Below are positions 1-51,642 of a stretch of 64,000 nucleotides of DNA, piece after piece (position 1 is the stretch's first letter; each line of letters begins with the position of its first letter). The stretch is from Candidatus Binatia bacterium (GTDB taxonomy: Bacteria; Desulfobacterota; Binatia; UBA9968). The stretch is from the NCBI GenBank assembly GCA_036504975.1, contig DASXUF010000173.1:2745-66744 (forward strand), read 5' to 3'. The position numbers and the translations under genes were made by a program. The notes under the pieces were generated by a model. That model made no database searches. It saw only the letters and a list, made by a program, of their open reading frames with translations, and was not told the origin of the DNA.

Positions 1-193
1 GGGCGGCTCCATCTTGATCCAGTTGGTGCTGGAAAATTCGTAGACCGACGTTCGCGGGTGATCGTGCCAGTCCTTGCACGCGTGAACGCACTGGCGGCAG
101 CCGATGCACTTGGAGGCGTCGAAAAGAATCGTTCTCGGCTTGCCGTCGAGCAGTTTCGCGGTCGGTATCAACGTGCCGTATTTTTCACTCATA
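1..193 (-). CDS. 4Fe-4S dicluster ferredoxin-type protein, N-terminal 64 codons (continues beyond window start)
   Basis: Reverse complement of 1-193 reads MSEKYGTLIPTAKLLDGKPRTILFDASKCIGCRQCVHACKDWHDHPRTSVYEFSSTNWIKMEPP. CIGCRQCVHAC is a classic CxxCxxCxxxC Fe-S motif of HybA/FdhB-like electron-transfer subunits. Not in the ORF track because no stop lies in the window. Confidence 0.5.
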
Positions 194-332
194 GGGTGAT
201 CTCCGTTGTAAGCGGAATGATATTAGTGTCCCCGTTCCGATGCTGTCAAGGCTTTTGGCGATGTCCGTTTGACAACCGCCCTCATCTGCGAGAGAAAGAT
301 TAAGTAACAACAACAGCGGGAGGATATTTTCG

Positions 333-35589: not shown

Positions 35590-38500
35590 GTGGGTCTCTC
35601 CGACCGCATGGCCGAAGCCTTACAAGAATCTTATCAAGGCTTAGAGAGAAAAATTACCGAAAGAACGCGGGACCTTTCGGCCCTCTATGCGGCTCTGGCG
35701 CCTTTGGCGTCTGCGGATCCCACCCGCTTGCTTCAACAAATCGTGGAGCGGCTCAAAGAGGCAACGGGCGCCGACGCCGCGCTCATTCGTATTCTCGACA
35801 AAGAAACAAAATCTCTTCGTTCTCCGGCTCACGTCGGGTTTTCTTCCGCTTACTTGCAGTCGACGCAGGATCTCGACGAAGGCTCGGCCGTCCGCGCCGC
35901 CTTCACGTCGGGCGAGCCGATCATCGCGGCGGATATTTCAAAAGATTCGCGGCTGAAGGGTAAGAAGCAAATAGAGGCGGGATTTCGCTCGTGCGCTTTT
36001 CTGCCCCTGAAAGTATCCGGCGAGCTGCGCGGAGTCGTCCATCTTGCCAGTGGCAAGGCCGGGCACTTCAGCGCGGATAAGATGGACAACCTCATGGCGA
36101 TCGCCCGTCAAATGGGCGTGGCCATGGAGAATCGCGAGCTGCTCGAGGAAACCAAGCGGCGCGCGGAACAGCAGGAGGCATTGGTCAAGTCGCTGAGCTT
36201 GCTCATCGGCGCGTCGCAGAAGCTGGTTGCGCGGGTCGATATCGACACGCTGGCTCAAGATATTTTGACAACCGTCGTGACCTCTTTCGGCATACGTTTG
36301 GCTTGGATCGGCAGCGCCGAATCCGACGGCCGAGTACGCCCGCTTTATTGGGCGGGAGACGTAGCGGAGTATCTGAGGCACGTCGAAATCCGCTGGGACG
36401 ATTCCCCGCTTGGACAAGGACCCGCCGGACGCGCCATCCGGACCGGCCGGCCGGTTGTCATGGACGTTGCCACCGATCCTGGATTTGAGCCGTGGCGCAA
36501 GCCGGCTCTTGACCATGGCTATCGCGAGGTCGCCGCATTTCCTCTTATGCGCGGCGCCACGCCGTTCGGCCACCTGATTCTCTACAGCAGCCAAAACGGT
36601 TTTTTTACTTCCGAGCGAGTGGAATTGCTGCAAACCTACGCGAATATCGCCACCGGCGCCCTCGAGAGCGCCCGTCTCTTTGAAGAGACCAAGCGCCAGG
36701 CGCAGGAAAAAGCGGCTTTGAACACGATCGCCACGGCTGTGAGCCAGTCGCTCGACGTGCAACAGATCCTAAACATCGCCATCGAAAAAGTGCTGGAAGT
36801 TACCGGCCGCGAGCGGGGTTACATCCGACTTAAAGATCTGGTTACTGGCGAGGTCACGCTGGCGGCCCACAAGGGGATCTCCGAGGAGTACGCTAACGTT
36901 CTCATTCACCAAAGGACTCCGGGAGGCAAGACCGATCAGGTCTTTACAACCGGGAAGCCCGTGATCATCAACGATCCCACGGCGATACCGCTCAAAGGAG
37001 AGACGCGCCGCGAGGGGCAAAATGTCGTGGCTTGGATTCCTGTGAAGGCGCGCGGCGAAGTGATCGGGATTCTCAACGTCGCCTCGGCGCGGCTGGTCCC
37101 TTTCTCGACTCAGGAAGTGGAGCTGCTCCAATCGATCGGGAATGTTATTGGAGTAGCCCTGGAAAACGCCTGGCTCTATAAAGAGTCGCAGCAGCATCAC
37201 GATATCCAAAAGCTTCTGAAGGAGGTGAGCCAGGACGTTACGGTTCTCGGTCTCGACCGCTCGCTCACGAAGATCGCAGATAAGGTTCGGGAGATGTTTA
37301 AAGTCGACATCGCCGATTTCCGGATTATCGAGGCAGGGGCCGCGAAGTACATCGGCCGGTCGGGGCAATGGTCCGAGCTTCTCGTGGGATCCGGTAAGAT
37401 GAGAGGGCGGATGAAATGGATTTTAGAGCATCGAACTCCTCTCATCATTCCGGATATCAACGTAGAGACGAACCTTCCCAGCGGCGATTCTATCCGGCAT
37501 CTCGGCCTCAGGGGTTTTCTCGCGGTGCCTCTCTTGTCGAGGAGCGCGGAGGTCATCGGCGTTCTCAGAGCGCTGACTTATTTGCCCCGAGACTTTAGGC
37601 CGGAACAGGTCGATTTTCTCCAGCAGTTGGCCAACGGGGTGGCCATTGCGATCGAGAATGCGCGCCTCTTCGAAGAGACCGTGCAGCGGGCGCAAGAGCA
37701 GGCAGCTCTTAGCGCGATCGCGACGGCGACCAGCCAATCACTTCACATCGACGAAATGCTCCATTTAGCGTTGGACAAGGTGTTGGAGGTCACAGGGCGT
37801 GAAAAGGGTTACATCAGGCTGAAGGATCCACTCACCGGCGACGTCAAGTTAGCAGCCCACCGGGGCATCTCCGATAAATACGTCACGCTTCTGCAACGCC
37901 GGACTCCGGGCGGTAAAAGCGATCAGGTTTTTGAAACGGGAGAACCGGTCATCATCAACGCTCCCGAAAAAGCGCTTCTCAGGGAGGAAACCCGTGATGA
38001 AGGCAACAGCTCCATCGCCTGGATTCCACTGAAGGCGCATGGGAAAGTCGTGGGGATCCTCAACGTCTCTACGGCTCAATCGGGTTTTTTCACCTCGCGT
38101 GAGGTGGATCTCTTGCAGGCCATCGGAAACGTGATCGGAGTCGCGGTTGAAAACGGCTGGCTTTACCAGGAATCCCAGCGGCAGGAGGAGATTCAAAAAC
38201 TCCTGAAGGAATTGAGCCAGGACATCACCTCTCTCGACATCAAATCTTTTTTTCAAAAGGTCACGGACAAAGTCCGCGAATACTTCAAGGTCGATATCTC
38301 GGACATCCGGCTGATCGAGCAGGGCGGGATTCTGCCGCCGGTCGGCTTGTCGGGTGCAGATTCCAAGCCTCTGTACAAATTGGGCGGACTGAGGGGACGA
38401 GCCGGATGGATCGTCAAAAATCGGCGCGCCGCGGTTATTTCGGATACCTCGAAAGACACGACTATTCCGGCCGGCGATACGACGCGTGAGATCGGTATCC

Positions 38501-41064
38501 GCGGCTATCTCGCCGTGCCGCTGTTCGCGCGGAGCGGCGAGGTCATCGGCATTCTCAGGGCGCTCACTTATAAACCGCGCGAGTTCAGCCAGTCCGAAGT
38601 CGATCTCGTCCAGCAGTTGGCCAACGGCACCGCGATCGCACTCACCAATGCCCGCCTCTTCGAGGAGACCGAGCGCCGGGCGCGCGAGCAGGCGGCTCTC
38701 TATGGCGTGACCGCGGCGGTCAGCGGCTCTTTCGATATCGAACAGATTCTTCTCAAGGGTCTCGATGCGGTCCTCGAAGCGACCGGCATGGAAGGGGGAT
38801 ACATCCAGTTTCTTGATGGAAACCCTCCGAAGCTCGTCCTTAGAGCGCATCGCGGGATGTCCCAGACCTTCATCGCGAAGACTCGCGATGAAATTCGTCC
38901 GGGCGGCAAGACGCAGCAGATTATCGCGACGAAACAGCCCCTGGTGCTGGAAGATATCGCTCCCGATCACGGAAAATTTCAGGGCGAGAACATCACCGCC
39001 GCCGCGTGGGTGCCGATCGTGGCGAAAGACAAAGTGATCGCGGTTCTCGCCGTCAGCACCAAGACCAAACGCCATTTTCCCCAGGCCCAGCTCCCGCTCC
39101 TGGTCTCGATCGCCAACGCCCTCGGCGTGGCGCTGGAGAACGCCCGGCTGTTTCAGGAGACCGAGCGCAACCTCGAGCGCATCCGCGCGCTCCGAGAGAT
39201 CGACCAAGCCATTTCCTCGACCCTGGACCTGCGCAACGTCCTCGATGTTTTGCTCGAGAAGATCGATCTCTCCCTTCCCTACGCGACGGCTACCATCAGG
39301 CTGTTTAACAAAGAGAACGGCATGTTGGAGCCGGTCGCCTGCCGGAATCTGGACGAAAACGAATGGAAGCTCGAGCAATGGAAACCGGGCCGCGGCATCG
39401 CCAATGTCGTGTTCGAGACCAAGACCCCTTTGATCATCCCGAACGCGCAGGCCGACCCGCGCGTGCTCGACGCCGAGTTTTACCGCAAGCACAGGCTCAC
39501 CTCCTATGTCGGCGTTCCGTTGATCGTGAAAGAGGAGGCGCTTGGGGTGCTTGGGTTTTACACCAAGGAGGAGCACGACTTCACCGGCGAGGAAGTCGAT
39601 TTTCTCGCCACCCTGGCGGGTCAGGCGGCGATCGCCATTCACAATTCGCAGCTCTACGAGAATGCCCGCCTTAGAGAAAAGCAACTGGAGGAAACCAACC
39701 GGATGCTTTCGGCGCTCCATGCGGTGGCGGCGACGGCGAGCCAATCGCTGGATCTGGATCGGGTCTTTCAATCGGCCATCGGGAAGATCACCGACATTTT
39801 CGGCTTCGACGCCACCCATATTCATATCTACAACGAGCGCACGGACGAGCTGGCGTTAAGAGCCAGTTTCGAGAGCGATCCGAATCGTTTCGTCCCGGTC
39901 CAGTCCTTCCAGAGGGGCCAAGGCATTGTCGGCGAGGTGGCGGAATCGGGCCGATCTATGATCTTTGAAGACGTTCAGACCGATCCCACATACCAAAAGC
40001 TCAGCCGCAGCAAGACCTCGGGCTGTGCCGGCTATCATCTTTTCGCGGTCTTCCCGATCAAGGGCAAGCTGAGAAACTTGGGCACTCTGGCATGCACCGG
40101 CATAGACCCGCGAAAATTGACTCCGGGCGAAATCCAACTCCTCGAGGCGGTCGCGGACCAAGTCGCCGTGGCGATCGAAAACGGCCAGCTTTACGAGCAG
40201 CTCCGACAGAAGGTCGAAGAGCTGATGCAGGCGAACAAAGTCAAAGACGAATTCTTGAGCGTCATGTCGCATGAGCTGAGGACGCCGCTGAACGTGGTCA
40301 TGGGCTACGCGGCGATGATCAAGGACGAGATGCTGGGGGTCGTCAATCTGGAGCAGAAGCGGGCGTTGGAGAAAGTCATCAGCCGCTCGAGCGATCTTTT
40401 GAACATGATCACAAGCATTCTCTACGCCACCAGCATTGAGGCCAAAGAGGTCCGGGTGCAAAACAGCGAGTTCGGCTTGAGCGATCTGCTCGACGAGCTC
40501 AAGAGAATCTACGACATCTCTCTGCTCAAGCCGATTGCGCTCGACTGGGATTACGCTCCCGGCTTGCCTCAGGTGTTTTTGGATCGCGACAAAGCGCGGG
40601 TCGTACTGCAGAAACTCATCGACAATGCGACCAAATTCACCGAGACCGGCGGCGTCACCGTCACCGCGCGCCTGAGCGAGGGCCGGAAGCAGAATCCGGA
40701 AAACAGTCGGCGCGAGGCGCCGCTTCCCGAACCTGCCAACGGCTGGTTGTTCTTGGAGCCGCCGTGGCTGGAAGTGAAGGTGACCGATACCGGGGTGGGA
40801 ATAGCCAAGGACAAGCTCCCCGTTATCTTCGACAAGTTCCGCCAGGCCGACAGCTCGGAGACCCGGCGTTATGGCGGCGTCGGCCTGGGACTTTATATCG
40901 CCAAGCACTTCACCGAATTGCTGGGCGGTCATATCGAAGTCGAGACGGAGGAAGGAAAAGGATCGATTTTTACACTCAAGGTACCGTGCCCGATCTTGCC
41001 GTCGTCGGCGAGTTCAAAGAGCGAAAATATCGAATTGACCGGCCATGTGTCCCAGATTCACTAA
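35590..41064 (+). CDS. cytoplasmic sensor histidine kinase with nine tandem GAF domains + HisKA + HATPase_c (HK1)
   Basis: 1824 aa. Nine repeats, each ending in a linker of the form ...IENARLFEET... C-terminal H-box LSVMSHELRTPLNVVMGYAAMI and G1/G2 boxes (DTGVGI, GGVGLGLYIAKHF). No TM or receiver domain. Confidence 0.85.
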   Translation: MGLSDRMAEALQESYQGLERKITERTRDLSALYAALAPLASADPTRLLQQIVERLKEATGADAALIRILDKETKSLRSPAHVGFSSAYLQSTQDLDEGSAVRAAFTSGEPIIAADISKDSRLKGKKQIEAGFRSCAFLPLKVSGELRGVVHLASGKAGHFSADKMDNLMAIARQMGVAMENRELLEETKRRAEQQEALVKSLSLLIGASQKLVARVDIDTLAQDILTTVVTSFGIRLAWIGSAESDGRVRPLYWAGDVAEYLRHVEIRWDDSPLGQGPAGRAIRTGRPVVMDVATDPGFEPWRKPALDHGYREVAAFPLMRGATPFGHLILYSSQNGFFTSERVELLQTYANIATGALESARLFEETKRQAQEKAALNTIATAVSQSLDVQQILNIAIEKVLEVTGRERGYIRLKDLVTGEVTLAAHKGISEEYANVLIHQRTPGGKTDQVFTTGKPVIINDPTAIPLKGETRREGQNVVAWIPVKARGEVIGILNVASARLVPFSTQEVELLQSIGNVIGVALENAWLYKESQQHHDIQKLLKEVSQDVTVLGLDRSLTKIADKVREMFKVDIADFRIIEAGAAKYIGRSGQWSELLVGSGKMRGRMKWILEHRTPLIIPDINVETNLPSGDSIRHLGLRGFLAVPLLSRSAEVIGVLRALTYLPRDFRPEQVDFLQQLANGVAIAIENARLFEETVQRAQEQAALSAIATATSQSLHIDEMLHLALDKVLEVTGREKGYIRLKDPLTGDVKLAAHRGISDKYVTLLQRRTPGGKSDQVFETGEPVIINAPEKALLREETRDEGNSSIAWIPLKAHGKVVGILNVSTAQSGFFTSREVDLLQAIGNVIGVAVENGWLYQESQRQEEIQKLLKELSQDITSLDIKSFFQKVTDKVREYFKVDISDIRLIEQGGILPPVGLSGADSKPLYKLGGLRGRAGWIVKNRRAAVISDTSKDTTIPAGDTTREIGIRGYLAVPLFARSGEVIGILRALTYKPREFSQSEVDLVQQLANGTAIALTNARLFEETERRAREQAALYGVTAAVSGSFDIEQILLKGLDAVLEATGMEGGYIQFLDGNPPKLVLRAHRGMSQTFIAKTRDEIRPGGKTQQIIATKQPLVLEDIAPDHGKFQGENITAAAWVPIVAKDKVIAVLAVSTKTKRHFPQAQLPLLVSIANALGVALENARLFQETERNLERIRALREIDQAISSTLDLRNVLDVLLEKIDLSLPYATATIRLFNKENGMLEPVACRNLDENEWKLEQWKPGRGIANVVFETKTPLIIPNAQADPRVLDAEFYRKHRLTSYVGVPLIVKEEALGVLGFYTKEEHDFTGEEVDFLATLAGQAAIAIHNSQLYENARLREKQLEETNRMLSALHAVAATASQSLDLDRVFQSAIGKITDIFGFDATHIHIYNERTDELALRASFESDPNRFVPVQSFQRGQGIVGEVAESGRSMIFEDVQTDPTYQKLSRSKTSGCAGYHLFAVFPIKGKLRNLGTLACTGIDPRKLTPGEIQLLEAVADQVAVAIENGQLYEQLRQKVEELMQANKVKDEFLSVMSHELRTPLNVVMGYAAMIKDEMLGVVNLEQKRALEKVISRSSDLLNMITSILYATSIEAKEVRVQNSEFGLSDLLDELKRIYDISLLKPIALDWDYAPGLPQVFLDRDKARVVLQKLIDNATKFTETGGVTVTARLSEGRKQNPENSRREAPLPEPANGWLFLEPPWLEVKVTDTGVGIAKDKLPVIFDKFRQADSSETRRYGGVGLGLYIAKHFTELLGGHIEVETEEGKGSIFTLKVPCPILPSSASSKSENIELTGHVSQIH

Positions 41065-41108
41065 GGCGGTTGCGGCTTCGTCGTTTCGACCGCCGGCGCG
41101 CTAAATCT

Positions 41109-43796
41109 ATGCGGCAAAAACTCGTACAGTTAACGCTCGGCAACATCGCGGGTCGCCTCTGGTCGCTCCTGCCCTCGGGCGGCTCCCTGCCCGACGAGGT
41201 CTGGCGCAACCGGCACCGCTTTCTCGTCGGGCTCACGTGGTTCCATGCGGTCATCATCGCTCTTCTGGGGCTGATATTGAGCGAAAACTGGGAAGTGAGC
41301 CTGAGCGCGATTTACCATGAAGACACCCTGCTCCACGCGGTTTCCGAAGGATTGCTGGTCGGCGGGTTTGCGTTCTTGGGCAGCAGGCTCAAAGCCAGTC
41401 GCGCCTTGCGCGCCGCGCTCGTGGGCTTGGGACTGATCAGTTCCTCCGCCATTCTCGTGCATCTTTTTGGCGGCTACATCGAGCTTCATTTCCACTTCTT
41501 TGTCATGCTCACCTTTCTCGCGCTCTACCAGGATTGGTTCCCCTTCGGACTATCGATCTTGTACGTCGCGGTGCATCACGGCGTGGTGGGCGTCCTGTGG
41601 CCCACGGAAGTCTACAATCATCCCGCGGCGATCGAATCTCCCTGGACGTGGGCCGGCATCCACGCTTTCTTCGTGCTCTGGGCTTCCGTCGGAAGCGTGA
41701 TCGCCTGGCGTCTGAACGAGGCGGCGATCGCCCGCACCAAACTCATTTTGAACTCGGCCGGCGAAGGCATCTTCGGCGTCGACGCCGACGGCAAAGCTAT
41801 TTTCGTGAATCCGGCGGCGGAGAAGATGCTCGGCTATCAGATGACGGATCTGAACGGCCGGAGCATGCACGACGTTCTGCGCCATGCGCGAGCGGATGAG
41901 ACGCCATGCGCCGGTGAAGAATGCCCCGTATGCGCCGTGTTGAAGGACGCGACCGTCCACCAGGCAAGCGAGGAAGTGTTCCGGAGTAAGGACGGCACGG
42001 GCTTCCCCGTGGATTACGTGAGCACACCCATCATCGAAGGCGGGGAATTGCGCGGCGCCGTCGTGACTTTTCGAGACGTGAGCCAGCGCCAGCAAGCGGA
42101 GAGGGCGCAGAGAGAAAGCGAGCTCCGATTTCGCCAGATGGCTGAGAACATCAAGCAGGTTTTTTGGATAACCGATACGCTGACTAACGCGTGGCTCTAC
42201 GTCAGTCCCGCCTACGGTGAAATATGGGGGCGCAGCGCCGAAGCGCTCGGCCCGATGGCCCAGTCCTGGCTTGGCGCGATCCACCCGGAAGATCTCGAGC
42301 GGGTGCTCGCCGCCGTACGAACGAAGCAGGTCACGGGAAGCTACGACGAGGAGTACCGGATCGTGCGGCCCGACGGATCGATCCGTTGGATTCGCGACCG
42401 TGCCTTTCCGGTAAGAAACGACTCGGGCAGGAACTATCGCGTCGCGGGCATCGCCGAGGACATCACCGAGCGCAAGCGCGCGGAAGAGGACGCGGAGCGC
42501 AATTTGGAGCGCTTGCGGGCGCTCAGGGATATCGATCATGCCATTTCTTCGAGTCTGGATCTCCGGACGGTCCTCGCCGTGCTGATGGAGAAGATCGATC
42601 TCGTTCTGCCTTATGCCGTCGTTACCGTGAGGCTTTTCAATAAGGCGAGCGGCCTGCTCGAGCCCGTCGCCTGCCGAAACCTGGACGAAAACGAATGGAA
42701 AGAAGCTCAGTGGAGAGGCGGGCGGGGCATCAGCAACGTCGTGTTCGAGGGCAAGGCGCCGCTCATCATCCGGGACACCCTGGCCGACGCTCGAGTCGTG
42801 GACGGTGAATTTTACCGCAAGCATAGCCTGATTTCATACGTCGGGGTTCCATTGACCGTCAAAGAAGACACTCTAGGCGTGCTCGGCTTCTACACCAAAG
42901 AGGAGCACGATTTTACCGGCGAGGAAGTCGAGTTTCTCATGACGCTCGCCGGCCAGGCGGCCGTCGCGATCCATAATTCCCAGATCTACGAGGAGATGGC
43001 GCAATTGGCGGTCGACTTGGCGAGCTCCAACAAGGTGAAGGACGAATTCTTGAGCGTGATGTCGCATGAGCTGAGAACGCCGCTGAACGTGGTGATGGGC
43101 TATGCAGCGATGATCAAAGACAAGCTGCTCGGCGAGGTGAGTCCGGAGCAGAGCCATGTCCTGGATAAGTTGATGAGCCGGATGCGCTCCCAACTGGATA
43201 TGGTCAACGGCATCCTGCAGGCGACCCAGATCCAGGCGCACAATGTCACGATCGATCAAGAAGAGGTGAGCGTGGCCAATCTTTTAAACGAGCTTCAATT
43301 GGCTTACAGGGCTGCCCTGGACAAGCCGGTCAAGCTCATCTGGGACTATTCCCCGGATTTGCCTGCGATCCAGAGCGACGGCAAGAAGTTGAAGCAGATT
43401 CTGGCGAACCTGGTGGATAACGCCATCAAGTTCACCGACGAAGGCCGCGTCACCGTCTCTGCCAGAGTAAAGGAAGGCGACAAGGCTGTGGAGTTGCGGG
43501 TCGAGGACACCGGCCGCGGGATTCCGGCCGAAGCGCTGCCCATTATTTTCGAAAAATTTCGCCAGGCGGATAGCTCGGAGACGCGCCTCCACGGCGGGAT
43601 CGGTCTGGGACTCTACATCGCCAAGAACTTCGCCGAGCTTCTCGGCGGCGCGATCAAAGTCGAGACCGCGGTGGGGAAGGGGTCGGTCTTTACCGTGACG
43701 ATCCCGTGCTCGGAGCATTCGTCGAAAACATATCCTCCGGGAGACAAATCGACGGCGAGCGGTCACGCCCGGGAGTTCGGGCCGGTGTCGTTTTAG
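41109..43796 (+). CDS. membrane sensor histidine kinase: His-rich polytopic TM domain + 2 PAS (one Cys-rich) + GAF + HisKA + HATPase_c (HK2)
   Basis: Real start MRQKLVQLTL at 41109; the upstream 115 codons of the 1010-aa track ORF overlap HK1. TM region with many conserved His. PAS with PCAGEECPVC. Confidence 0.85.
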   Translation: MRQKLVQLTLGNIAGRLWSLLPSGGSLPDEVWRNRHRFLVGLTWFHAVIIALLGLILSENWEVSLSAIYHEDTLLHAVSEGLLVGGFAFLGSRLKASRALRAALVGLGLISSSAILVHLFGGYIELHFHFFVMLTFLALYQDWFPFGLSILYVAVHHGVVGVLWPTEVYNHPAAIESPWTWAGIHAFFVLWASVGSVIAWRLNEAAIARTKLILNSAGEGIFGVDADGKAIFVNPAAEKMLGYQMTDLNGRSMHDVLRHARADETPCAGEECPVCAVLKDATVHQASEEVFRSKDGTGFPVDYVSTPIIEGGELRGAVVTFRDVSQRQQAERAQRESELRFRQMAENIKQVFWITDTLTNAWLYVSPAYGEIWGRSAEALGPMAQSWLGAIHPEDLERVLAAVRTKQVTGSYDEEYRIVRPDGSIRWIRDRAFPVRNDSGRNYRVAGIAEDITERKRAEEDAERNLERLRALRDIDHAISSSLDLRTVLAVLMEKIDLVLPYAVVTVRLFNKASGLLEPVACRNLDENEWKEAQWRGGRGISNVVFEGKAPLIIRDTLADARVVDGEFYRKHSLISYVGVPLTVKEDTLGVLGFYTKEEHDFTGEEVEFLMTLAGQAAVAIHNSQIYEEMAQLAVDLASSNKVKDEFLSVMSHELRTPLNVVMGYAAMIKDKLLGEVSPEQSHVLDKLMSRMRSQLDMVNGILQATQIQAHNVTIDQEEVSVANLLNELQLAYRAALDKPVKLIWDYSPDLPAIQSDGKKLKQILANLVDNAIKFTDEGRVTVSARVKEGDKAVELRVEDTGRGIPAEALPIIFEKFRQADSSETRLHGGIGLGLYIAKNFAELLGGAIKVETAVGKGSVFTVTIPCSEHSSKTYPPGDKSTASGHAREFGPVSF

Positions 43797-43820
43797 CAAA
43801 GCGTCGCGCTGGAAAAGATT

Positions 43821-46800
43821 GTGAAGTCCAAGAAAAAAACTGCTGCGCTCGCCGAAAGAATCGCCGAAAGGAATTCCGATCTTTCCGCTCTCGCCCGAGA
43901 ACAACAGGCGCTCAACATGATCGCCCAGGCCGTCAGTCAATCGCTGCACCGCGACGAGCTGCTGGAGATCGCGCTCGACAAGGTTCTGGAGGTCACCGGC
44001 CGCGAGCGGGGAACGATCAGGCTCAAAGATTCGGTCACCGGCGACGTCAAGCTGTCGGCCCACCGCGGCTTCTCCGAAGAGGAAATAGCGGAGCTGCGTC
44101 GCAACATGCCGCATCGAATCAGCGAGCAGATTTTTGCTTCCGGCCAGCCGCTCGTCGTCAACGATCGGGCGGAGCTCCGTAACACGCAGTCTCTGTTGCC
44201 CCAAAGCCGCTCGGTCGCCTGGATCCCGATCAAGGCGCGGCAAAAAGTCGTCGGCGTGCTCGGGGTTTCCGCGGGCCGGCCCATACCATTTAGGCAACGC
44301 GAGGTCGATCTTCTTCAGGCGGTTGGCAGCGTCATCGGCGTCGCGATCGAAAATGCCCGGCTCTTCGAAGAAACCGGACGCCGGGCGCGCGAGCTGGCCG
44401 CGCTGCATGCGGTGACGGCCGCGGTCAGCGGCTCTTTCGATCTCGATCAGATTCTCCTCAAGGGTCTCGACGCGGTCCTCGAAGTAACGGAAATGGAAGT
44501 GGGTTACATCCAGTTTCTCGATGGCCACCCGCCCAGGCTTCTCCTCAAGGCGCATCGCGGCATGTCCGAATTGTTTCTCACGAGGTTCCAGGGCCGAGTT
44601 CGTCCGGGCGGCAAGACCGAGCAGATCATCGCGACGCGACAACCGCTGGTGCTGGAAAATATTCCCGCCGATCACGTGGGAAAATTCTCGGGCGAAAGAG
44701 TCACCGCGGCGGCGTGGGTGCCGATCACGTCGAAGGACAAAGTCATCGGCGTTCTCACCATCAGCACCAAAACCAGACCGACCTTTCCCCTGGCCCACCT
44801 TCCGCTGTTGGCCTCGATCGGCAATACGCTCGGGGTCGCGCTGGAGAACGCCCGGCTTTTCGAAGAAACCAAACAGCGCGCTCACGAGCAAGCGGTGCTC
44901 TCCGCGGTTGCCATGGCGATGAGCGAGTCGCTTCAGCTCGACGAGCTTCTGCGGATCGCGTTGGACCGGGTGCTCGAGGTCACCGGGAGGGAGCAAGGAT
45001 ATATACGGCTAAAAGATCCCGTCACCGGCAACCTAACGCTCGCCGCCCACCGCGGCGTTTCGGAAAATTATCTCCAAACGCTGCTGCATGGGCGCACGCC
45101 GGGCGGCAAGAGCGACCGCGTTTTCAAATCGGGGGAGCCGCTGGTCATCAACGATCCCGAAGGCTTTCAGCTCAAGGAACAGACCCGCCGCGAAGGAAAC
45201 CGCTCCTTCGTATGGGTTCCGTTAAAGGTGGGAGGAAAAACGGTCGGCATCGTGAACGTCTCGACGAGCCGGCCGCTTCCGTTCCAGCCGCGAGAAGTGG
45301 AGCTTTTGAAGGCGATCGGCAACGTGATCGGCGTGGCGCTGGAGAACGCGCGTCTCTTCAACGAAACCGAGCGGAGTCTGGAGCGCATCCGGGCGCTGAG
45401 AGAAATCGACCAGGCCATCACCACGAGTCTGGATCTGCGCACGATCCTGGACGTGCTGATGGAAAAAATCGATCTCGTCCTCCCGTACGCCGCGGCGACG
45501 GTGCGATTGCATAACAAGGAAAGCGGCTTCTTGGAACCCGTCGCCTGCCGAAACCTGGACGAAGAAGAATGGAAGAAAGCGCAGTGGAAAGGCGGACGGG
45601 GCATCGCCAACGTCGTTTTCGAAAAGCGGGCGCCGCTGATTATCCGCAACGCCCAGGCGGACGCGCGCGTGCTCGACGCCGCGTTTTACCGCAAGCACAG
45701 CCTGACCTCATACGTGGGAGTTCCCTTGCGGGTCAAGGACGAGGTCCTGGGGGTGCTCGGTTTCTACACCAAAGAGGAGCACGAATTCACCGGCGAGGAG
45801 GTCGAGTTCCTGATGACGCTGGCGGGGCAGGCGGCCATAGCGATCCACAAGTCCCAGCTTTACGAGGAGGCGCGTACTCGGGAAAAGGAAATGCAAGAAA
45901 CCAACCGCATGCTCTCGGCGTTGCATGCGGTGGCCGCCGCGGCGAGCCAATCGCTGGACCTCGACCGGGTCGTGCGCGCGGCGATCGAGAAAATTACCGA
46001 AATATTAGGCTTCGACGCGACGCAAATCCACGTTTACAACGGGCGCTCGGACGAGCTGGTCATGCGCGCCTACTACGAGATGGACCCGAAACTTTTCGTT
46101 TCGGTCCGAGCATTTAAGGTCGGACAAGGCATCGTCGGCAAAGTGGCCGAATCGGGCCAGCCGTTGATCTTCGAGGACGTCCTTACCGATCCGTTGTATC
46201 AAAGTCTCAGCCGCACGAAAGCGTCGTACCAGTTGGGCTATCATTTCTTTGCCGTCTTTCCGATTCGCGGCAAGCTCAGAAGCTTGGGCACGCTCGCCTG
46301 CACCGGCATCGACTCCCGGCGTTTGAGCTCCGGCGAGGTCCAACTGCTCGAGGCTATGGCGGACCAGATTGCCGTGGCGATAGAAAACACCGGGCTCTAC
46401 GAGCAGTTGACGCAGAAAGTCGACGAGCTGCAATTCAAGACCGAAGAGCTCCAGCGCGCCAACAAAGTCAAGGACGAATTCTTGAGCGTGATGTCGCACG
46501 AGCTCCGAACGCCGCTGAACGTCGTCATGGGTTATACCGCGATGATCAAGGACCAGATGGTCGGCGCGGTGAATCCGGAGCAGAGTCAAATTCTGGAGAA
46601 GCTGATGAGCCGCGTGCGCTCTCAGCTCGACATGGTCAACAGCATATTGCAGGCGACCCAGATTCAGGCGGCTACCGTCGCTCTCGAGCGCGAAGAAGTC
46701 AAGTTGAAAGATCTTCTCGACGGTCTCAAATCGGACCACAGCGCCAATTTGACCAAGCCCCTGACTCTGATCTGGGACTATCCACGGGACTTGCCCGCGA

Positions 46801-47276
46801 TCCAGAGCGACGGCAAAAAGCTGAAGCAGATTCTGGAGAACTTGATCCACAACGCCATCAAGTTCACCGACCAGGGCTGTGTGACCGTCTCGGCGAAGAT
46901 AACAGAAGGCGGTATGCGGAAAGCAGTAAGCAGCGGGCACGAAGCTGAGATTCTGCCTGCTGCCGACCGCCTGCTGGCTACGGGGAGGCGGTGGCTGGAG
47001 TTGCGGGTTGCGGACACCGGGCGCGGGATTCCGGCGCAAGCGCTGTCCATTATTTTCGAAAAATTTCGCCAGGCGGACAGCTCCGAGACCCGGCGCTACG
47101 GCGGCGTCGGCCTGGGACTTTATATCGTCAAGAACTTTACCGAACTCCTCGGCGGCGCGGTCGAGGTCGAGACCGAGGAAGGAAAGGGATCGATCTTTAC
47201 TGTGACGATTCCTTGCACGGTCTCGTCTTCGGCTGCGGAACGCCCGGAGGAATCCAAAAGGCTGAAATCCGCGTGA
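43821..47276 (+). CDS. cytoplasmic sensor histidine kinase with five tandem GAF domains + HisKA + HATPase_c (HK3)
   Basis: 1151 aa; same module grammar as HK1. H-box LSVMSHELRTPLNVVMGYTAMI. Confidence 0.85.
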   Translation: MKSKKKTAALAERIAERNSDLSALAREQQALNMIAQAVSQSLHRDELLEIALDKVLEVTGRERGTIRLKDSVTGDVKLSAHRGFSEEEIAELRRNMPHRISEQIFASGQPLVVNDRAELRNTQSLLPQSRSVAWIPIKARQKVVGVLGVSAGRPIPFRQREVDLLQAVGSVIGVAIENARLFEETGRRARELAALHAVTAAVSGSFDLDQILLKGLDAVLEVTEMEVGYIQFLDGHPPRLLLKAHRGMSELFLTRFQGRVRPGGKTEQIIATRQPLVLENIPADHVGKFSGERVTAAAWVPITSKDKVIGVLTISTKTRPTFPLAHLPLLASIGNTLGVALENARLFEETKQRAHEQAVLSAVAMAMSESLQLDELLRIALDRVLEVTGREQGYIRLKDPVTGNLTLAAHRGVSENYLQTLLHGRTPGGKSDRVFKSGEPLVINDPEGFQLKEQTRREGNRSFVWVPLKVGGKTVGIVNVSTSRPLPFQPREVELLKAIGNVIGVALENARLFNETERSLERIRALREIDQAITTSLDLRTILDVLMEKIDLVLPYAAATVRLHNKESGFLEPVACRNLDEEEWKKAQWKGGRGIANVVFEKRAPLIIRNAQADARVLDAAFYRKHSLTSYVGVPLRVKDEVLGVLGFYTKEEHEFTGEEVEFLMTLAGQAAIAIHKSQLYEEARTREKEMQETNRMLSALHAVAAAASQSLDLDRVVRAAIEKITEILGFDATQIHVYNGRSDELVMRAYYEMDPKLFVSVRAFKVGQGIVGKVAESGQPLIFEDVLTDPLYQSLSRTKASYQLGYHFFAVFPIRGKLRSLGTLACTGIDSRRLSSGEVQLLEAMADQIAVAIENTGLYEQLTQKVDELQFKTEELQRANKVKDEFLSVMSHELRTPLNVVMGYTAMIKDQMVGAVNPEQSQILEKLMSRVRSQLDMVNSILQATQIQAATVALEREEVKLKDLLDGLKSDHSANLTKPLTLIWDYPRDLPAIQSDGKKLKQILENLIHNAIKFTDQGCVTVSAKITEGGMRKAVSSGHEAEILPAADRLLATGRRWLELRVADTGRGIPAQALSIIFEKFRQADSSETRRYGGVGLGLYIVKNFTELLGGAVEVETEEGKGSIFTVTIPCTVSSSAAERPEESKRLKSA

Positions 47277-47286
47277 TGGTGGACGA

Positions 47287-49530
47287 ATGAATAGATTTTC
47301 CTTCTCGGGGCTCCGCGTCCGCTTGATCCTGCTGGTTCTTTTGGCCGTGATCCCGGCCTTGGGACTGATCTTCTACGCGGCCTCTGCGCCGGACGAGCAT
47401 AACATGGCGCACAGTCTGGTTTGGCTCATGATCGTTTTGCTGTTGACCCTGGCCGGCGCTTGGTGGGGCGGTAACTGGCTGATCGTCGGGCAATTGAAGA
47501 GATTGATGGAAGCGACTGAAAAGCTCGGCACCGGTGATCTCGACGCGCGGGTTGCCGTTTCGAACGGCGACGGCGAGCTGCAAAAACTTGCCCGAGGGTT
47601 CAATCAAATGGCCGAAGGCCTGCAACGTCGCGACGCCGAGACGAAGCTGGCGCAAAGCGAGCTCAAGCGGCTGCTGCGGCAGAGCACGGCGCTGCGCGAG
47701 ATCAACCTCGCCGTCACCTCGAGTCTGGATTTACGCGCGGTATTGGGGGTCTTGATGGAGAAAATCCAGATCCTGCTTCCTTACGCCGTGCTTCTCGTCT
47801 GGCTCAGGAACCGCGAGACCGGAGAACTGGAGCGGACGGCTTGCTGGAACATCGATGAAGCCGACTGGAAGCGGCGGAAGAACAAGGACGCGCCGCCGAT
47901 TATCAAAGCGGCGATTGAAAATCAGAGTCCGGTTTCCGTCCTCGACGTGCCCACCGATCCCCGGACCGAGAATCCGGAGTTCTACCGCCGGAACGGCGTG
48001 GTCTCCTATCTCGGAGTCCCCCTGATCGTCAAAGGCGAGGCGCTGGGGGTTTTGGCCTTTCTGACACGCGAGCGGCACGAATTCACCGCCGAGGAGGTAG
48101 AGTTCTTGTCCTCCCTGGCGGGCCAGGCGGCGGTGGCGATCCATAACTCTCAGCTTCACGAGCAGAGCAAAAGACAGGCGGTCGAGCTCGAGAAAGCGAA
48201 CAAGGATTTAAGTCGAAAGGAAGCGATCCAGGCGCTGCTCAAGGAGCTAAGCCAGGACATCGCGTCTCAGGACGTGGGAAGCTTGCTTAAAAAGCTCACC
48301 GACAAAGTGTGCGAGTTCTTCAAAGTGGACATCGCCGACGTGCGCATCATCGACAACGGCGTGCCGCGCATCCTCGGCGTCTCCGGCGTCGACGAAGAGA
48401 AGATGCGGCTCGGCAGCACCGGCAGCGGCAGAGGCGCATCGGGATGGATCGTCGCAAACCGCAGACCGCTCGCGATAGCGGACTTGACGAAAGTAAAAAA
48501 TCCTCCGATCGGCCGGACGACGCGCCGCATCGGCATCCACGGCTATCTTGCCGTGCCGTTTTTTTCCCGCAGCGGAGAAGTCCTGGGCGTTCTCCGGGCG
48601 TTGACCTACCGGCCGAGAGAGTTTCTCCAGGAGGAAATAGATCTGTTGCAGCAGATGACCAACGGCGCCGCCATCGCGTTGGAAAACGCCCGGCTTCTGG
48701 AGCAGACCCAGACCCAGGCGGCCGAGCTCAGGCAGGCGAACAAGGTCAAGAACGAGTTTCTGGGCTTCGTGTCGCACGAGCTGAGGACGCCGGTGAACGT
48801 CATCATGGGTTATGCGGCGATCCTGCAAAGCAAGATGCTGGGCGAGATCAACGCCGAGCAGGACAACGCGCTGGAAAAAATGAGCGTCAATTCGAAAGAG
48901 CTGCTGAGCATGATCGAACTGCTTTTGGAGGCGACCAAGATCGAGGCCGGCGCCGCGGCGGTGGAGATCGCGGAAGTCAATTTGTCCGATTTTCTCGAGG
49001 ATCTAAAATCCGCCTACTCCATTCCGTTGAAGAAGCAGATACGTCTGGATTGGGATTGGCCCAAGAACTTTCCCGTTATAAAAACCGACCGCGAGAAGCT
49101 GAGACACATCCTGCTGAACGTCATCGGCAACGCGGTCAAATATACCGAGCAGGGCAGCGTCGGCGTTTCGGCGCGCTATCTGGTCGAACAGGGGCGGGTC
49201 GAGTTCGAAGTCACGGACACCGGGATCGGCATTCCGAAAGAGGAGCTGCCGCGCATCTTCGAGATGTTCTCTCAAGTCCGCAGCGCCCGGTCCAAGTCTT
49301 CCGGCGGAGTGGGCCTCGGCCTTCACATCGTCAAGAAGTTTACCGAGCTGCTCGGCGGAGACATCCGCGTGACGAGCGAAGAGGGCAAAGGATCGACGTT
49401 TGCGATAAGGTTGCCCACCGGCGGCCAGGCCGGGCAGGCGCCCGACCGTCAGGACTTTCGCGCGGATGAATCTTCGGCTGCGCGAGAAAAAGAAAGCGCC
49501 GAGCGTCCGGTCCCGGCGGGGGATTCTTGA
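47287..49530 (+). CDS. membrane sensor histidine kinase: 2 TM + HAMP + 2 GAF + HisKA + HATPase_c (HK4)
   Basis: 747 aa. Two hydrophobic helices, HAMP (GDLDARVAVSNGDGELQKLARGFNQMAEGL), H-box FVSHELRTPVNVIMGYAAIL. Confidence 0.85.
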   Translation: MNRFSFSGLRVRLILLVLLAVIPALGLIFYAASAPDEHNMAHSLVWLMIVLLLTLAGAWWGGNWLIVGQLKRLMEATEKLGTGDLDARVAVSNGDGELQKLARGFNQMAEGLQRRDAETKLAQSELKRLLRQSTALREINLAVTSSLDLRAVLGVLMEKIQILLPYAVLLVWLRNRETGELERTACWNIDEADWKRRKNKDAPPIIKAAIENQSPVSVLDVPTDPRTENPEFYRRNGVVSYLGVPLIVKGEALGVLAFLTRERHEFTAEEVEFLSSLAGQAAVAIHNSQLHEQSKRQAVELEKANKDLSRKEAIQALLKELSQDIASQDVGSLLKKLTDKVCEFFKVDIADVRIIDNGVPRILGVSGVDEEKMRLGSTGSGRGASGWIVANRRPLAIADLTKVKNPPIGRTTRRIGIHGYLAVPFFSRSGEVLGVLRALTYRPREFLQEEIDLLQQMTNGAAIALENARLLEQTQTQAAELRQANKVKNEFLGFVSHELRTPVNVIMGYAAILQSKMLGEINAEQDNALEKMSVNSKELLSMIELLLEATKIEAGAAAVEIAEVNLSDFLEDLKSAYSIPLKKQIRLDWDWPKNFPVIKTDREKLRHILLNVIGNAVKYTEQGSVGVSARYLVEQGRVEFEVTDTGIGIPKEELPRIFEMFSQVRSARSKSSGGVGLGLHIVKKFTELLGGDIRVTSEEGKGSTFAIRLPTGGQAGQAPDRQDFRADESSAAREKESAERPVPAGDS

Positions 49531-49545
49531 GGGAGGCCTCAGAGT

Positions 49546-51642
49546 TTGATGGAAGTTAACGCTCTCGTTCGAATCAGTCGAGTCATGCGACGCGCTCTCG
49601 GACAGGCGCGTGCCGCGGTCGCCTACCTGATTTACGAGCACACGATTCTCCTGCTGACCGTCATGTTTTGCGCCGCAGGGGCGGCGACGCTGTGGCATTT
49701 GTCCCGCCTGTCGGCAACTCTAGTCGAGTCCGGAGCGTTACAGGGAACCGTGCTCTATTCCGGATCTCTCACCGAGCTGCGCACCTTCTATGGCTCCGAG
49801 GTCGTGGATAGGGTCAGGTCGCGCGGCATCGAGGCCACCCACGACTACGCCGGCAAACAAGGCGCAATCCCGATTCCGGCGACATTCACGATCGAGTTCG
49901 GCAAGCACATGGGCGCGATCAGCCCCGGGATGCAGATCCGCCTCTACAGCGATTATCCTTTTCCGTTCAGGAAAGACGGCGGTCCGAGAGATGGTTTCGA
50001 GCGCGACGCTCTTCTGGAGCTGAGAAAAAATCCCGGCCAACCTTATTTTCGTTTTGAAGATTTCCAGGGCAGAGCGTCCTTGCGCTATGCCACCGCGGTC
50101 CAACTGCGCGCCGGGTGCGTCTCCTGCCACAACACTCATCCCGAGAGCCCCAAGATCGATTGGCAGGTCGGCGACGTAAGAGGAGTCCAGGAGATTATTC
50201 GCCCCTTGGACAGCGCCATCGCCGAGACCCGCTCGGGCCTCCAAAGCACCTTTGTCCTTCTCGGCACGATGGGACTTTTGGGAGTGGGCGGCCTAGCCAT
50301 GGTGATCGGCAGGATGCGCCGCACCTCGGTGGAGTTGCAGCAGCGGGTCGCCGAGCGCACCGCCGCCGAGGCCCGTTTGGCGGCGTTACATGAAATCAAT
50401 CTGGCCGCGACCTCGACCCTGGATCTGCCTAACGTCTTGAGAGTGTTGTTGGAAAAAATCGGCGTCTTCCTACCCTATGCCGCGGCCACCGTCCGTTTAT
50501 TCAATGAAGCGAGCGGTCTCCTGGAGCCGATTGCCTGCCTGAACCTCGACGAAGAGGAATGGAAGGAAGAGCAATGGAAAGGCGGCCGCGGATTGCCGAA
50601 CGTGATCTTCAAAAATAGGGTGCCTTGGATGGTGCGGAATATTCAAACCGACTCGCGCGTCCAGGACCCCGATTTTTTTCGCCGGCAGGGTTTGGTTTCC
50701 TATCTGGGAGTTCCTTTGATCGTGAAAGACGAGATCTTCGGGGTCATTTCCTTTTATACGAAAAAAGAGCACGATTTCAGCGACGACGAAATCGAATTTC
50801 TCAACACGCTCGTCGGACAGGCGGCCATCGCGATCAATAATTCGCAGCTCTTCGAGCAGACCCGAAGCCAGGCGGTCGCGATGGAGAAATCAAACAAGGT
50901 CAAGGACGAATTTTTGAGCGTCATGTCGCATGAGCTGAGAACTCCGTTGAATGTGGTCATCGGCTATACCGGACTGATGAAAGAAGGAATATTGGGCGCC
51001 GTCAGCGAAGAGCAAACCAAAGCCTTGGACAAAATCGGCGATCGGGCCAAGGACCAATTGACCATGATCGACAGTATTTTGTTCGCTACTTCGGTCGAGA
51101 CCCGCGAGATCAAGGCGGAGTCCCAGGAGTTGAACCTGGCGGCGTTTCTCGACGATCTCAAGTCAAGCTATGAAGTTTCGGTGGAAACGCGAATCCGTCT
51201 GAATTGGATCTACGCGGCGGATTTGCCGGTGGTCCAGTTAGACGTGGCAAAGCTGAGACACGTCCTGCAAAATCTCATCAATAATGCACTCAAGTTCACC
51301 CGCGAGGGCGAGGTGGCGGTATCGGCGAGAATGATGGGAAACGGACAGCACGCAGGGGGCAATGGGTATCCGGCATTTATAGAATTCAAGGTGGCCGATA
51401 CCGGTATCGGCATTGCGGAGTCGCATGTGCAGGTCATCTTCGACAAGTTCCGCCAGGTGGACAGCTCCGAGACGAGACCGTACGGAGGCGTCGGCATCGG
51501 CCTTTACATCGTGAAAAAATTCACCGAGATGCTCGGCGGCACCGTCGATGTCGAGAGCAAGCCCGGCGAAGGATCGACGTTTACGGTCCGAGTGCCTTGC
51601 GCCGTCGCCAATGTTAAGGGTCAAGGCGCCGATTGGATATAA
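49546..51642 (+). CDS. sensor histidine kinase with periplasmic DUF3365 (CXXCH, putative heme-c) domain + GAF + HisKA + HATPase_c (HK5)
   Basis: 698 aa. N-terminal TM, periplasmic domain containing GCVSCHNTHPESPKIDW (CXXCH), second TM, then the conserved C-terminal GAF and kinase core. Confidence 0.85.
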   Translation: MMEVNALVRISRVMRRALGQARAAVAYLIYEHTILLLTVMFCAAGAATLWHLSRLSATLVESGALQGTVLYSGSLTELRTFYGSEVVDRVRSRGIEATHDYAGKQGAIPIPATFTIEFGKHMGAISPGMQIRLYSDYPFPFRKDGGPRDGFERDALLELRKNPGQPYFRFEDFQGRASLRYATAVQLRAGCVSCHNTHPESPKIDWQVGDVRGVQEIIRPLDSAIAETRSGLQSTFVLLGTMGLLGVGGLAMVIGRMRRTSVELQQRVAERTAAEARLAALHEINLAATSTLDLPNVLRVLLEKIGVFLPYAAATVRLFNEASGLLEPIACLNLDEEEWKEEQWKGGRGLPNVIFKNRVPWMVRNIQTDSRVQDPDFFRRQGLVSYLGVPLIVKDEIFGVISFYTKKEHDFSDDEIEFLNTLVGQAAIAINNSQLFEQTRSQAVAMEKSNKVKDEFLSVMSHELRTPLNVVIGYTGLMKEGILGAVSEEQTKALDKIGDRAKDQLTMIDSILFATSVETREIKAESQELNLAAFLDDLKSSYEVSVETRIRLNWIYAADLPVVQLDVAKLRHVLQNLINNALKFTREGEVAVSARMMGNGQHAGGNGYPAFIEFKVADTGIGIAESHVQVIFDKFRQVDSSETRPYGGVGIGLYIVKKFTEMLGGTVDVESKPGEGSTFTVRVPCAVANVKGQGADWI

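Follow-up and report, generated by a model that had tools for sequence, protein, structure and literature searches.

A widespread His/Glu-rich six-helix membrane domain of a Binatia sensor kinase and its probable kinship with the aerotaxis transducer HtrVIII

Receptors of the ETR1 family carry an N-terminal transmembrane (TM) domain with membrane-embedded copper, followed by a GAF domain and a histidine kinase, and sense a small hydrophobic gas within the bilayer. They have three TM helices and a Cys/His copper site. The MHYT domain is a further membrane-embedded sensor, and copper is needed for CO sensing in the case of CoxC of Afipia carboxidovorans (PMC11347149). In Halobacterium salinarum, attraction to O2 is mediated by HtrVIII (also Htr8, OE3167F), which reviews present as the sole six-TM transducer of this archaeon. 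Homology between its six TM helices and the haem-binding sites of cytochrome c oxidase has been reported (Brooun et al. 1998, J Bacteriol 180:1642, as cited in PMC13401364, PMC7289035, and PMC3579733). The present work concerns HK2, a sensor histidine kinase of a Candidatus Binatia bacterium (GTDB lineage Bacteria; Desulfobacterota; Binatia; UBA9968). HK2 is encoded on a 64,000-nucleotide stretch of DNA, hereafter referred to as the window (GenBank assembly GCA_036504975.1, contig DASXUF010000173.1, positions 2,745 to 66,744 of the forward strand). Its N-terminal membrane domain belongs to a very widespread family that has neither a database name nor a fold match in the PDB, and adds a new, kinase-coupled example to a kind of sensor that is known but has yet to be characterised.

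The translation of HK2 equals HEY3306086.1, from a Candidatus Binatia metagenome-assembled genome (MAG), in length and sequence, and the database label of this protein is merely "PAS domain S-box protein". From the N- to the C-terminus, the six-TM domain is followed by two PAS domains, a GAF domain, HisKA, and HATPase. As a HisKA domain with its H-box histidine and a HATPase_c domain are both present, HK2 is a HisKA-class sensor histidine kinase.

The membrane domain of HK2 and its relatives

A first-pass annotation, made by a model from the letters of the window, had described the N-terminal part of HK2 as a polytopic, histidine-rich membrane domain followed by a PAS domain, and had quoted four membrane peptides and one cysteine-containing peptide. 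All five peptides are present (aa 36-53, 118-134, 152-165, 170-188, and 263-280, respectively). The overall description was borne out, with six TM helices, ten of eleven histidines conserved among 381 relatives, and a PAS domain recognised by Pfam directly behind the membrane part. The count of 13 histidines needs correction. Residues 1 to 215 contain 11, and 13 is reached only if H254 and H259 of the PAS domain are included.

Hydropathy, the positive-inside rule, and a structural model predicted with AlphaFold2 (AF2) concur on six TM helices and a cytoplasmic N-terminus. The model of the membrane domain was built from 84 homologues and reached a mean predicted local distance difference test (pLDDT) score of 94.4 and a predicted template modelling (pTM) score of 0.86. 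The lysine and arginine residues of the domain are confined to the N-terminal tail, the loop at residues 93-101, and the stretch after TM6, which therefore places the N-terminus and the PAS domains in the cytoplasm. In the model, TM6 and the first PAS domain (PAS1) are linked by one unbroken helix. No internal repeat was found in the membrane domain when its two halves were compared by hhalign (probability 0.4%), nor was a second copy of the domain found elsewhere in the window.

Residue depths were estimated from the helix boundaries and the positive-inside rule. By this estimate, H76, E80, H118, E125, H127, H129, H156, H157, N170, H171, and H185 would lie in the periplasmic half of the bilayer, while H46 would sit mid-membrane in TM1 and H36 at the cytoplasmic face. 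Given the six-TM topology, the outer leaflet is thus predicted to hold eight conserved histidines and two glutamates.

The enrichment of histidine by composition alone is modest, with 11 in 215 residues against 2.1% in the remaining protein (binomial P = 0.005). The observation is significant because conservation among relatives, not composition, is decisive. Conservation counts were taken from the 381 relatives that are complete at all key columns. E125, H157, and H185 are invariant (381/381 each), and H127 is retained in 380, H129 in 378, H171 in 376, and H118 in 368 of them. The other histidines follow with 354 (H76), 353 (H46), 349 (H156), and 345 (H36) relatives. Beyond the histidines, W143 is kept in 378, E204 in 370, and N170 in 357 relatives, and E80 in 332, with aspartate at this place in 24 more. 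In sum, ten of the eleven histidines of residues 1-215 are conserved, each kept in 345 to 381 relatives, together with Glu80 and Glu125. The sole non-conserved histidine, H70, sits in an insertion that most relatives lack. The rare replacements at conserved positions are mostly Q, E, D, N, or Y. These substituting residues are ligand-capable too, and were counted in favour of a bound cofactor. Across the whole domain, bacterial and archaeal copies have kept about 50% identity.

The core of the conserved region comprises H118, E125, H127, and H129 in the motif "VHLxGGYIExHFHFFV", H156-H157 in "HHG", N170-H171 in "VYNHP", and H185 in "IHAFFV". A natural variant is found in Nitrospira sp. (locus L062, 6001-6570, chromosome OZ245008.1). 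It is devoid of H76 and E80 and carries Asp in place of H156, while H118, E125, H127, H129, H157, H171, and H185 are retained. This variant suggests a division of the ligands into a core and a periphery that can be dispensed with.

Searched exhaustively with phmmer, 1.84 billion representative proteins yielded 3310 matches at E<=1e-3, 1466 at <=1e-10, and 545 at <=1e-30, each match being a representative cluster at 50% identity. Nearly all matches lie at the N-terminus, in proteins of up to 1245 aa. Members are labelled in their sources as "PAS domain-containing", "hypothetical", "histidine kinase", "GGDEF", or "methyl-accepting chemotaxis protein". The domain was confirmed at 540 loci or more in GTDB species genomes, and locus context and taxonomy were taken from the best 80 of these at least 540 loci, all of them in MAGs. 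Bacterial hosts among the 80 belong to Binatia, Rokubacteria/Methylomirabilota, Acidobacteriota, Nitrospirota, Actinomycetota, Chloroflexota, Verrucomicrobiota, and Armatimonadota, and archaeal hosts to Halobacteriales, Thermoplasmatota, and Methanobacteriota. At least one genome possesses two copies (L004 and L005).

The domain is N-terminal at the 80 loci, and in 71 full-length members it is followed by a variety of outputs. HATPase_c (53), HisKA (52), and PAS (50) are the most common, followed by GAF (20) and REC (13), and more rarely by GGDEF (7), EAL (5), HisKA_3 (3), and HD-GYP (2). This modular and always upstream placement identifies it as an input (sensor) domain. At three loci of Actinomycetota (L067, 2114-5794; L074, 5119-6831; L075, 4627-7962), the open reading frame (ORF) reaches 290-620 aa upstream of the domain, which is either a real N-terminal extension or an ORF overrun in high-GC DNA. 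Five short members from metagenomes (P0346, P0352, P0355, P0323, and P0284; 272-278 aa) lack a kinase. In them, the six-TM domain is joined to a coiled coil and a two-helix hairpin, "ALEINDxVVQGL", which is similar to a dimerisation and histidine phosphotransfer (DHp) domain and has Asn at the place of the phospho-acceptor His of HisKA_3. Such proteins may serve kinases as partners devoted to sensing, or as decoys.

The membrane domain of HK2 has no match in Pfam (E<=1) or NCBIfam, and no Pfam membrane-domain model reached E<=0.001 among the 71 full-length members. The search that the first-pass annotation had suggested, against MHYT, 5TMR, 7TMR, and cytochrome-b-like models, likewise returned nothing for the query or the 71 members, so that the MHYT, MASE, 5TMR, 7TMR, and cytochrome-b models are ruled out. 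In particular, MASE1-12, 5TMR_LYT, 7TMR-DISM, and cytochrome-b-type domains gave no Pfam or NCBIfam match. MASE9-12, as described in the literature, do not correspond to the HK2 domain either, as they have aromatic, Asn/Ser or Cys/Arg/Asp signatures and seven to eight TM helices or a HAMP linkage. A sequence-profile search of the PDB produced weak matches in the PAS region and nothing for the membrane domain. Foldseek comparison of the AF2 model with 350,542 PDB chains gave 185 matches, none of them at E<=0.001 (best E 0.46), and the best TM-score for the membrane domain was 0.39, to ImcA. Literature searches did not find a described His-rich membrane sensor domain. The earlier statement that the input is not a named domain family thus holds for Pfam and NCBIfam, and is to be qualified in one respect: the domain is probably the six-TM domain of HtrVIII described in 1998, as far as the citing reviews render it.

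This connection arose from a tblastn search against plasmids of cultured organisms, which located the domain in haloarchaeal six-TM chemoreceptors of 617-655 aa. The carriers are Haloarcula marismortui (pNG700), Halobaculum limi, Halorussus pelagicus, and two Halorubrum species, the two Halorubrum matches spanning only the second half of the domain. Identity to the HK2 domain amounts to 37-47% over the matched stretches (E=1e-30 to 2e-15). The copies of Haloarcula and Halobaculum, which are aligned in full, keep H36, H46, H118, E125, H127, H129, H157, N170, H171, and H185, and the core histidines are kept in the haloarchaeal chemoreceptors wherever they are aligned. In these proteins, plainly named "methyl-accepting chemotaxis protein" in their sources, the domain is followed by HAMP and MCPsignal, and Pfam and NCBIfam scans detected no named N-terminal domain in any of the five.

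Cultured haloarchaeal six-TM chemoreceptors with this domain point to the aerotaxis transducer HtrVIII. We consider it probable that the membrane module of HK2 is the N-terminal domain of HtrVIII, a conclusion reached by way of these other haloarchaeal six-TM chemoreceptors. In both HtrVIII and HK2, a six-TM N-terminal domain stands directly ahead of a cytoplasmic signalling module. According to the reviews, histidine motifs in the TM helices of HtrVIII were likened to haem ligands of the oxidase subunit I, and HK2 shows a resemblance of this kind at the level of motifs that is not statistically significant. The cofactor is putative in both cases. The two proteins differ in output, which is PAS-PAS-GAF-histidine kinase in the Binatia bacterium and HAMP-MCP in the archaeon.

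A putative membrane-embedded cofactor and competing explanations

A metal or haem sensor, as proposed in the first-pass annotation, would be the most economical reading of the membrane domain. In the version that we favour and to which we assign an even chance, the conserved residues would form an outer-leaflet His/Glu site with a membrane-embedded metal or haem cofactor, by which O2, NO, or the redox state is sensed. H76, H118, E125, H127, and N170/H171 would constitute a tier near the interface, and E80, H129, H156/H157, and H185 a second tier about 5 Å deeper. The cluster would hold a permanently bound redox-active cofactor, which could be a haem or a Cu/Fe centre or combine the two. Either a redox change or a gas that dissolves in the membrane (O2, possibly NO) would then alter the coordination of the cofactor and shift TM4-TM6. 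From there, the signal would pass along the continuous helix between TM6 and PAS1 to PAS1, the second PAS domain (PAS2), GAF, and the HisKA/HATPase core, resulting in changed autophosphorylation at His653. Convergence of the residues on one site, the identity of the cofactor, and the ligand are what we infer here.

Such a mode of action would be akin to that of MHYT and ETR1, without membership in either family. Like MHYT (PF03707), the HK2 domain is a modular integral-membrane input of about six TM helices with conserved histidines near the outer face, coupled to kinases, GGDEF/EAL, and further outputs. MHYT requires a metal (copper) and responds to a diatomic gas. The HK2 domain differs from it in lacking the threefold MHYT repeat and in having a His/Glu ligand set without a Met or Tyr motif. 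Membership in MHYT was rejected, as no family-model match in the query or the 71 relatives and no repeat between the two halves were found. ETR1 shares with the arrangement proposed for HK2 a membrane metal cofactor ahead of GAF and kinase domains, and no sequence similarity between the two was detected.

Resemblance to the haem-copper oxidases exists at the level of motifs and is not statistically significant. The sequence "YIEAHFHFFV" in TM4 resembles "YVVAHFHYVL" in helix X of COX1, the helix that bears the haem a3 and haem a ligands. The "HHG" of TM5 can be likened to the CuB pair of COX1 helix VII, and "IHAFFV" of TM6 to "AHAFVM" of helix II. For these comparisons, the sequence of COX1 was verified against 1occ_A. 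In both proteins, the ligands are located in the P-side half of the membrane, if the depths estimated for HK2 are correct. The best hhalign alignment, itself non-significant, sets TM4-TM6 on COX1 helices X-XII. With hmmsearch at Z=1, the quinol-type NO reductase qNOR gave E=0.03-0.05 with a meaningless alignment. Membership in the haem-copper oxidase superfamily (PF00115) was rejected on account of six instead of twelve TM helices, the motif order, and the lack of a significant profile, Pfam, or Foldseek match. The resemblance would be at most convergent or the remnant of extreme divergence.

One haloarchaeal locus has a suggestive context. In Halobaculum limi, the chemoreceptor with the domain is flanked by a qNOR gene and nirK (L082, plasmid NZ_CP120469.1, 1433-7003), an arrangement that may point to O2/NO sensing. 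The qNOR of this locus is annotated as cbb3 oxidase subunit I, with Pfam matches to NorB_cytochrome_c-like and COX1, and a gene for haem-copper oxidase subunit III lies near the chemoreceptor.

Several points weigh against a redox-active cofactor of this kind. The cofactor is putative for every member of the family, and convergence of the histidine side chains on one site was derived from depth alone. No Arg or Lys is conserved on the periplasmic side for holding haem propionates. Some members, among them the haloarchaeal chemoreceptors, have other residues in place of H156 and H76/E80. Comparison with the oxidases gave E=1 against bovine COX1 (hmmsearch at Z=1) and hhalign probabilities of 0.06 and 0.09, no oxidase occurs among the 50 Foldseek matches listed (0/185 at E<=0.001), and HxH in TM4 precedes HH in TM5, an order that is not colinear with COX1. 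The family identity with HtrVIII is based on haloarchaeal homologues and not on the HtrVIII sequence itself. Finally, the denitrification context occurs in one genome only, and nothing comparable was found at the other haloarchaeal loci.

The same residues could instead form a reversible periplasmic site for a transition-metal ion (Zn, Cu, Ni, or Co) and make the domain a direct metal-ion sensor. Eight histidines and two glutamates near the periplasmic face would suit this role, His/Glu clusters being typical ligands of Zn, Ni, and Cu, and CusS, CopS, and CzcS use His-rich periplasmic sites. The neighbourhood of the domain and its usage argue otherwise. ORF clustering of the neighbours of the 80 loci revealed response-regulator or kinase genes as the only recurrent ones, at 37 loci, and metal-efflux, chaperone, or resistance genes do not recur beside them. 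BLAST comparison of the same neighbours with qNOR, NirK, and CoxIII gave essentially nothing. Since signalling genes alone recur, neither a partner protein nor a metal-resistance operon accompanies the domain, and a general physiological cue would account for this pattern more readily than a circuit devoted to metal resistance. Chemotaxis, c-di-GMP, and many kinase outputs, along with two copies in at least one genome, would be unusual for a sensor of metal stress. Moreover, at least seven ligand residues are near-invariant, and several of them, at an estimated depth of about 5 Å from the bilayer centre, suggest a structural cofactor. Direct metal-ion sensing is therefore regarded as unlikely.

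A metal-free function is more doubtful still. Here, the His/Glu/Asn/Gln residues would act in proton or pH sensing, form a hydrogen-bonded polar core, or line a quinone or lipid site, and the domain would report membrane energisation or the redox state of the quinone pool. Periplasmic histidine clusters gate pH-sensitive membrane proteins such as UreI. The peripheral replacements Q, N, E, D, and Y are all hydrogen-bonding residues, and conserved aromatic side chains that could form the wall of a quinone pocket are available in W143, W179, W181, and Y169. The invariance of so many histidines across bacteria and archaea, with "HxH", "HH", and "NH" pairs, goes beyond known pH and quinone sensors, and no likeness to known quinone-site folds appeared among the Foldseek matches listed from the PDB.

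The cysteine motif of PAS1

The first-pass annotation had also assigned a role to a cysteine cluster in PAS1, with the spacing C-x5-C-x2-C, as part of a redox input. The actual spacing is C267-x4-C272-x2-C275. Three of the five cysteines of HK2 thus fall within nine residues, with a chance probability of about 0.002. PAS1 is an ordinary PAS domain, and its closest solved relative is the PAS domain of PA0861 (E=1.3e-7). As a direct search with PAS1 gave only four matches, conservation was judged on 83 PAS domains that stand behind the same membrane domain. The full triad occurs in none of these 83. Taken singly, C267 is found in 2, C272 in 23, and C275 in 1 of them. C272 is part of a recurrent "EECPIYAA" motif, in which many others have Ser, and positions 267 and 275 are usually occupied by Y/F and L/Y, respectively. 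The cluster mate P0384 (>=90% identity) has the same cysteine motif.

Many of the related PAS domains share the longer motif "HHS(R/K)xDG(T/S)PYPxEECPIYAA(F)(K/R)DG", which corresponds to residues 256-284 of HK2 (41874-41960 in the window), and others carry "SPILAP" at this place. These domains make up a PAS subfamily in which one Cys or Ser is conserved.

NreB/AirS-type Fe-S PAS domains possess four conserved cysteines. HK2 resembles them in having clustered cysteines in a cytoplasmic PAS domain and differs in that there are three, which are not conserved. Assignment to this type was rejected, as only C267, C272, and C275 are available and the triad is absent from all the related domains. It is nevertheless conceivable that redox state or O2 is sensed mainly through this cluster, with bound Fe-S or zinc, in the manner of NreB or AirS. 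The improbable clustering speaks for this, as do its location between the conserved "DG" and "DG/DA" turns, the cofactor region of other PAS domains, and its retention in the cluster mate. The absence of the triad from the family, three cysteines in place of the four of the NreB type, and a closest solved PAS domain that reveals no cofactor-specific similarity make such a role highly improbable. The earlier view of the cluster as part of a conserved redox input is not supported. Because the triad is lacking in relatives, it lies outside the conserved sensing mechanism of the family. The motif may be at most a secondary thiol or zinc switch and a lineage-specific addition. Conservation, on which the first-pass annotation had made its proposal depend, is found for the histidines and is missing for the cysteines.

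Lastly, the membrane domain could be a mere anchor or dimerisation module, as TM regions are in many kinases, with the two PAS domains and the GAF domain, each able to bind ligands, as the real inputs, which has next to no chance of being correct given that archaeal and bacterial copies share about 50% identity and the same 12 polar residues within the membrane, and that the domain recombines as a unit with many different outputs.

The kinase array and the significance of the domain

HK2 is the second of five sensor-kinase genes arranged in tandem on the plus strand of the window (35590-51642). The C-terminal GAF-HisKA-HATPase modules of the other array kinases are 33-52% identical to that of HK2, while the input modules differ. 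The array has the appearance of one transmitter to which diverse inputs were joined in cassette fashion. Among the ORFs scanned on both sides of the array, no response-regulator gene was found. Kinase 5 is, judging by its haem-c attachment motif, a probable haem-based sensor in the same array as the His-rich membrane sensor. The coordinates of all features are compiled in Table 1.

Table 1. Features of HK2 and of the surrounding kinase array, with positions in the window
Feature	Residues of HK2	Position in window	Strand	Basis or remark
Kinase 1, 1824 aa, multi-GAF		35590-41064	+	
HK2, complete sensor histidine kinase gene, second in five-kinase array	895 aa + stop	41109..43796	+	ORF (ATG at 41109, stop at 43796)
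Unnamed six-TM His/Glu-rich sensor domain	1-205	41109..41723	+	No Pfam/NCBIfam match; AF2 pLDDT 94.4; no PDB fold match
Amphipathic helix	2-19			AF2
TM1	29-57			Hydropathy and AF2
TM2	74-93			Hydropathy and AF2
TM3	98-119			Hydropathy and AF2
TM4	124-140			Hydropathy and AF2
TM5	143-163			Hydropathy and AF2
TM6	178-214			Hydropathy and AF2; continuous with PAS1
Further conserved polar residues (H76/E80 in outer part of TM2)	H36, H46, H76, E80	41214..41348	+	Conservation in 381 relatives
Core conserved ligand region	118-185	41460..41663	+	Conservation in 381 relatives
PAS1	210-326	41736..42086	+	Pfam PAS/PAS_9
C267-x4-C272-x2-C275 motif in PAS1, lineage-specific	267-275	41907..41933	+	Sequence
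PAS2 (PAS_3 at 363-449)	335-461	42111..42491	+	Pfam and TIGR00229
GAF domain	484-622	42558..42974	+	Pfam GAF/GAF_2
HisKA dimerisation/phospho-acceptor domain	644-710	43038..43238	+	Pfam HisKA, E=1.1e-14
Phospho-acceptor His653 in "SHELRTP" box	653	43065-43067	+	Motif location
HATPase_c catalytic domain	757-867	43377..43709	+	Pfam HATPase_c, E=2.8e-30
Kinase 3, multi-GAF		43821-47276	+	
Kinase 4, TM-HAMP-GAF		47287-49530	+	
Kinase 5, Tll0287-like (PF11845) domain		49546-51642	+	CVSCH haem-c attachment motif at 50116-50130

Of all parts of bacterial signalling, input domains integral to the membrane are understood least. The size of the present family, together with its lack of a database model and of an assigned cofactor, makes it worthwhile as a target for experiments, and the invariant His/Glu set makes the hypothesis of a bound cofactor directly testable. 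Cultured haloarchaea with the domain, such as Haloarcula marismortui, Halorubrum, and Halobaculum, belong to a group with genetic tools and offer experimental systems. A family profile would re-annotate thousands of proteins now named "PAS domain S-box" or "hypothetical".

The favoured outer-leaflet cofactor site can be extended, tentatively and with rather more doubt than confidence, to a "miniature" haem and/or binuclear Cu/Fe centre built from six helices. Its oxidase-like ligand motifs would have arisen by convergence or would be an extremely diverged fragment, and the family would represent an unrecognised broad class of metallo-sensors. If this is true, thousands of kinases, c-di-GMP enzymes, and chemoreceptors of soil bacteria and archaea read O2 or NO within the membrane, which would also explain O2 sensing by HtrVIII. 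If the link to HtrVIII is true, an observation made in 1998 on one archaeal aerotaxis receptor would become that of a general O2/NO-sensing module.

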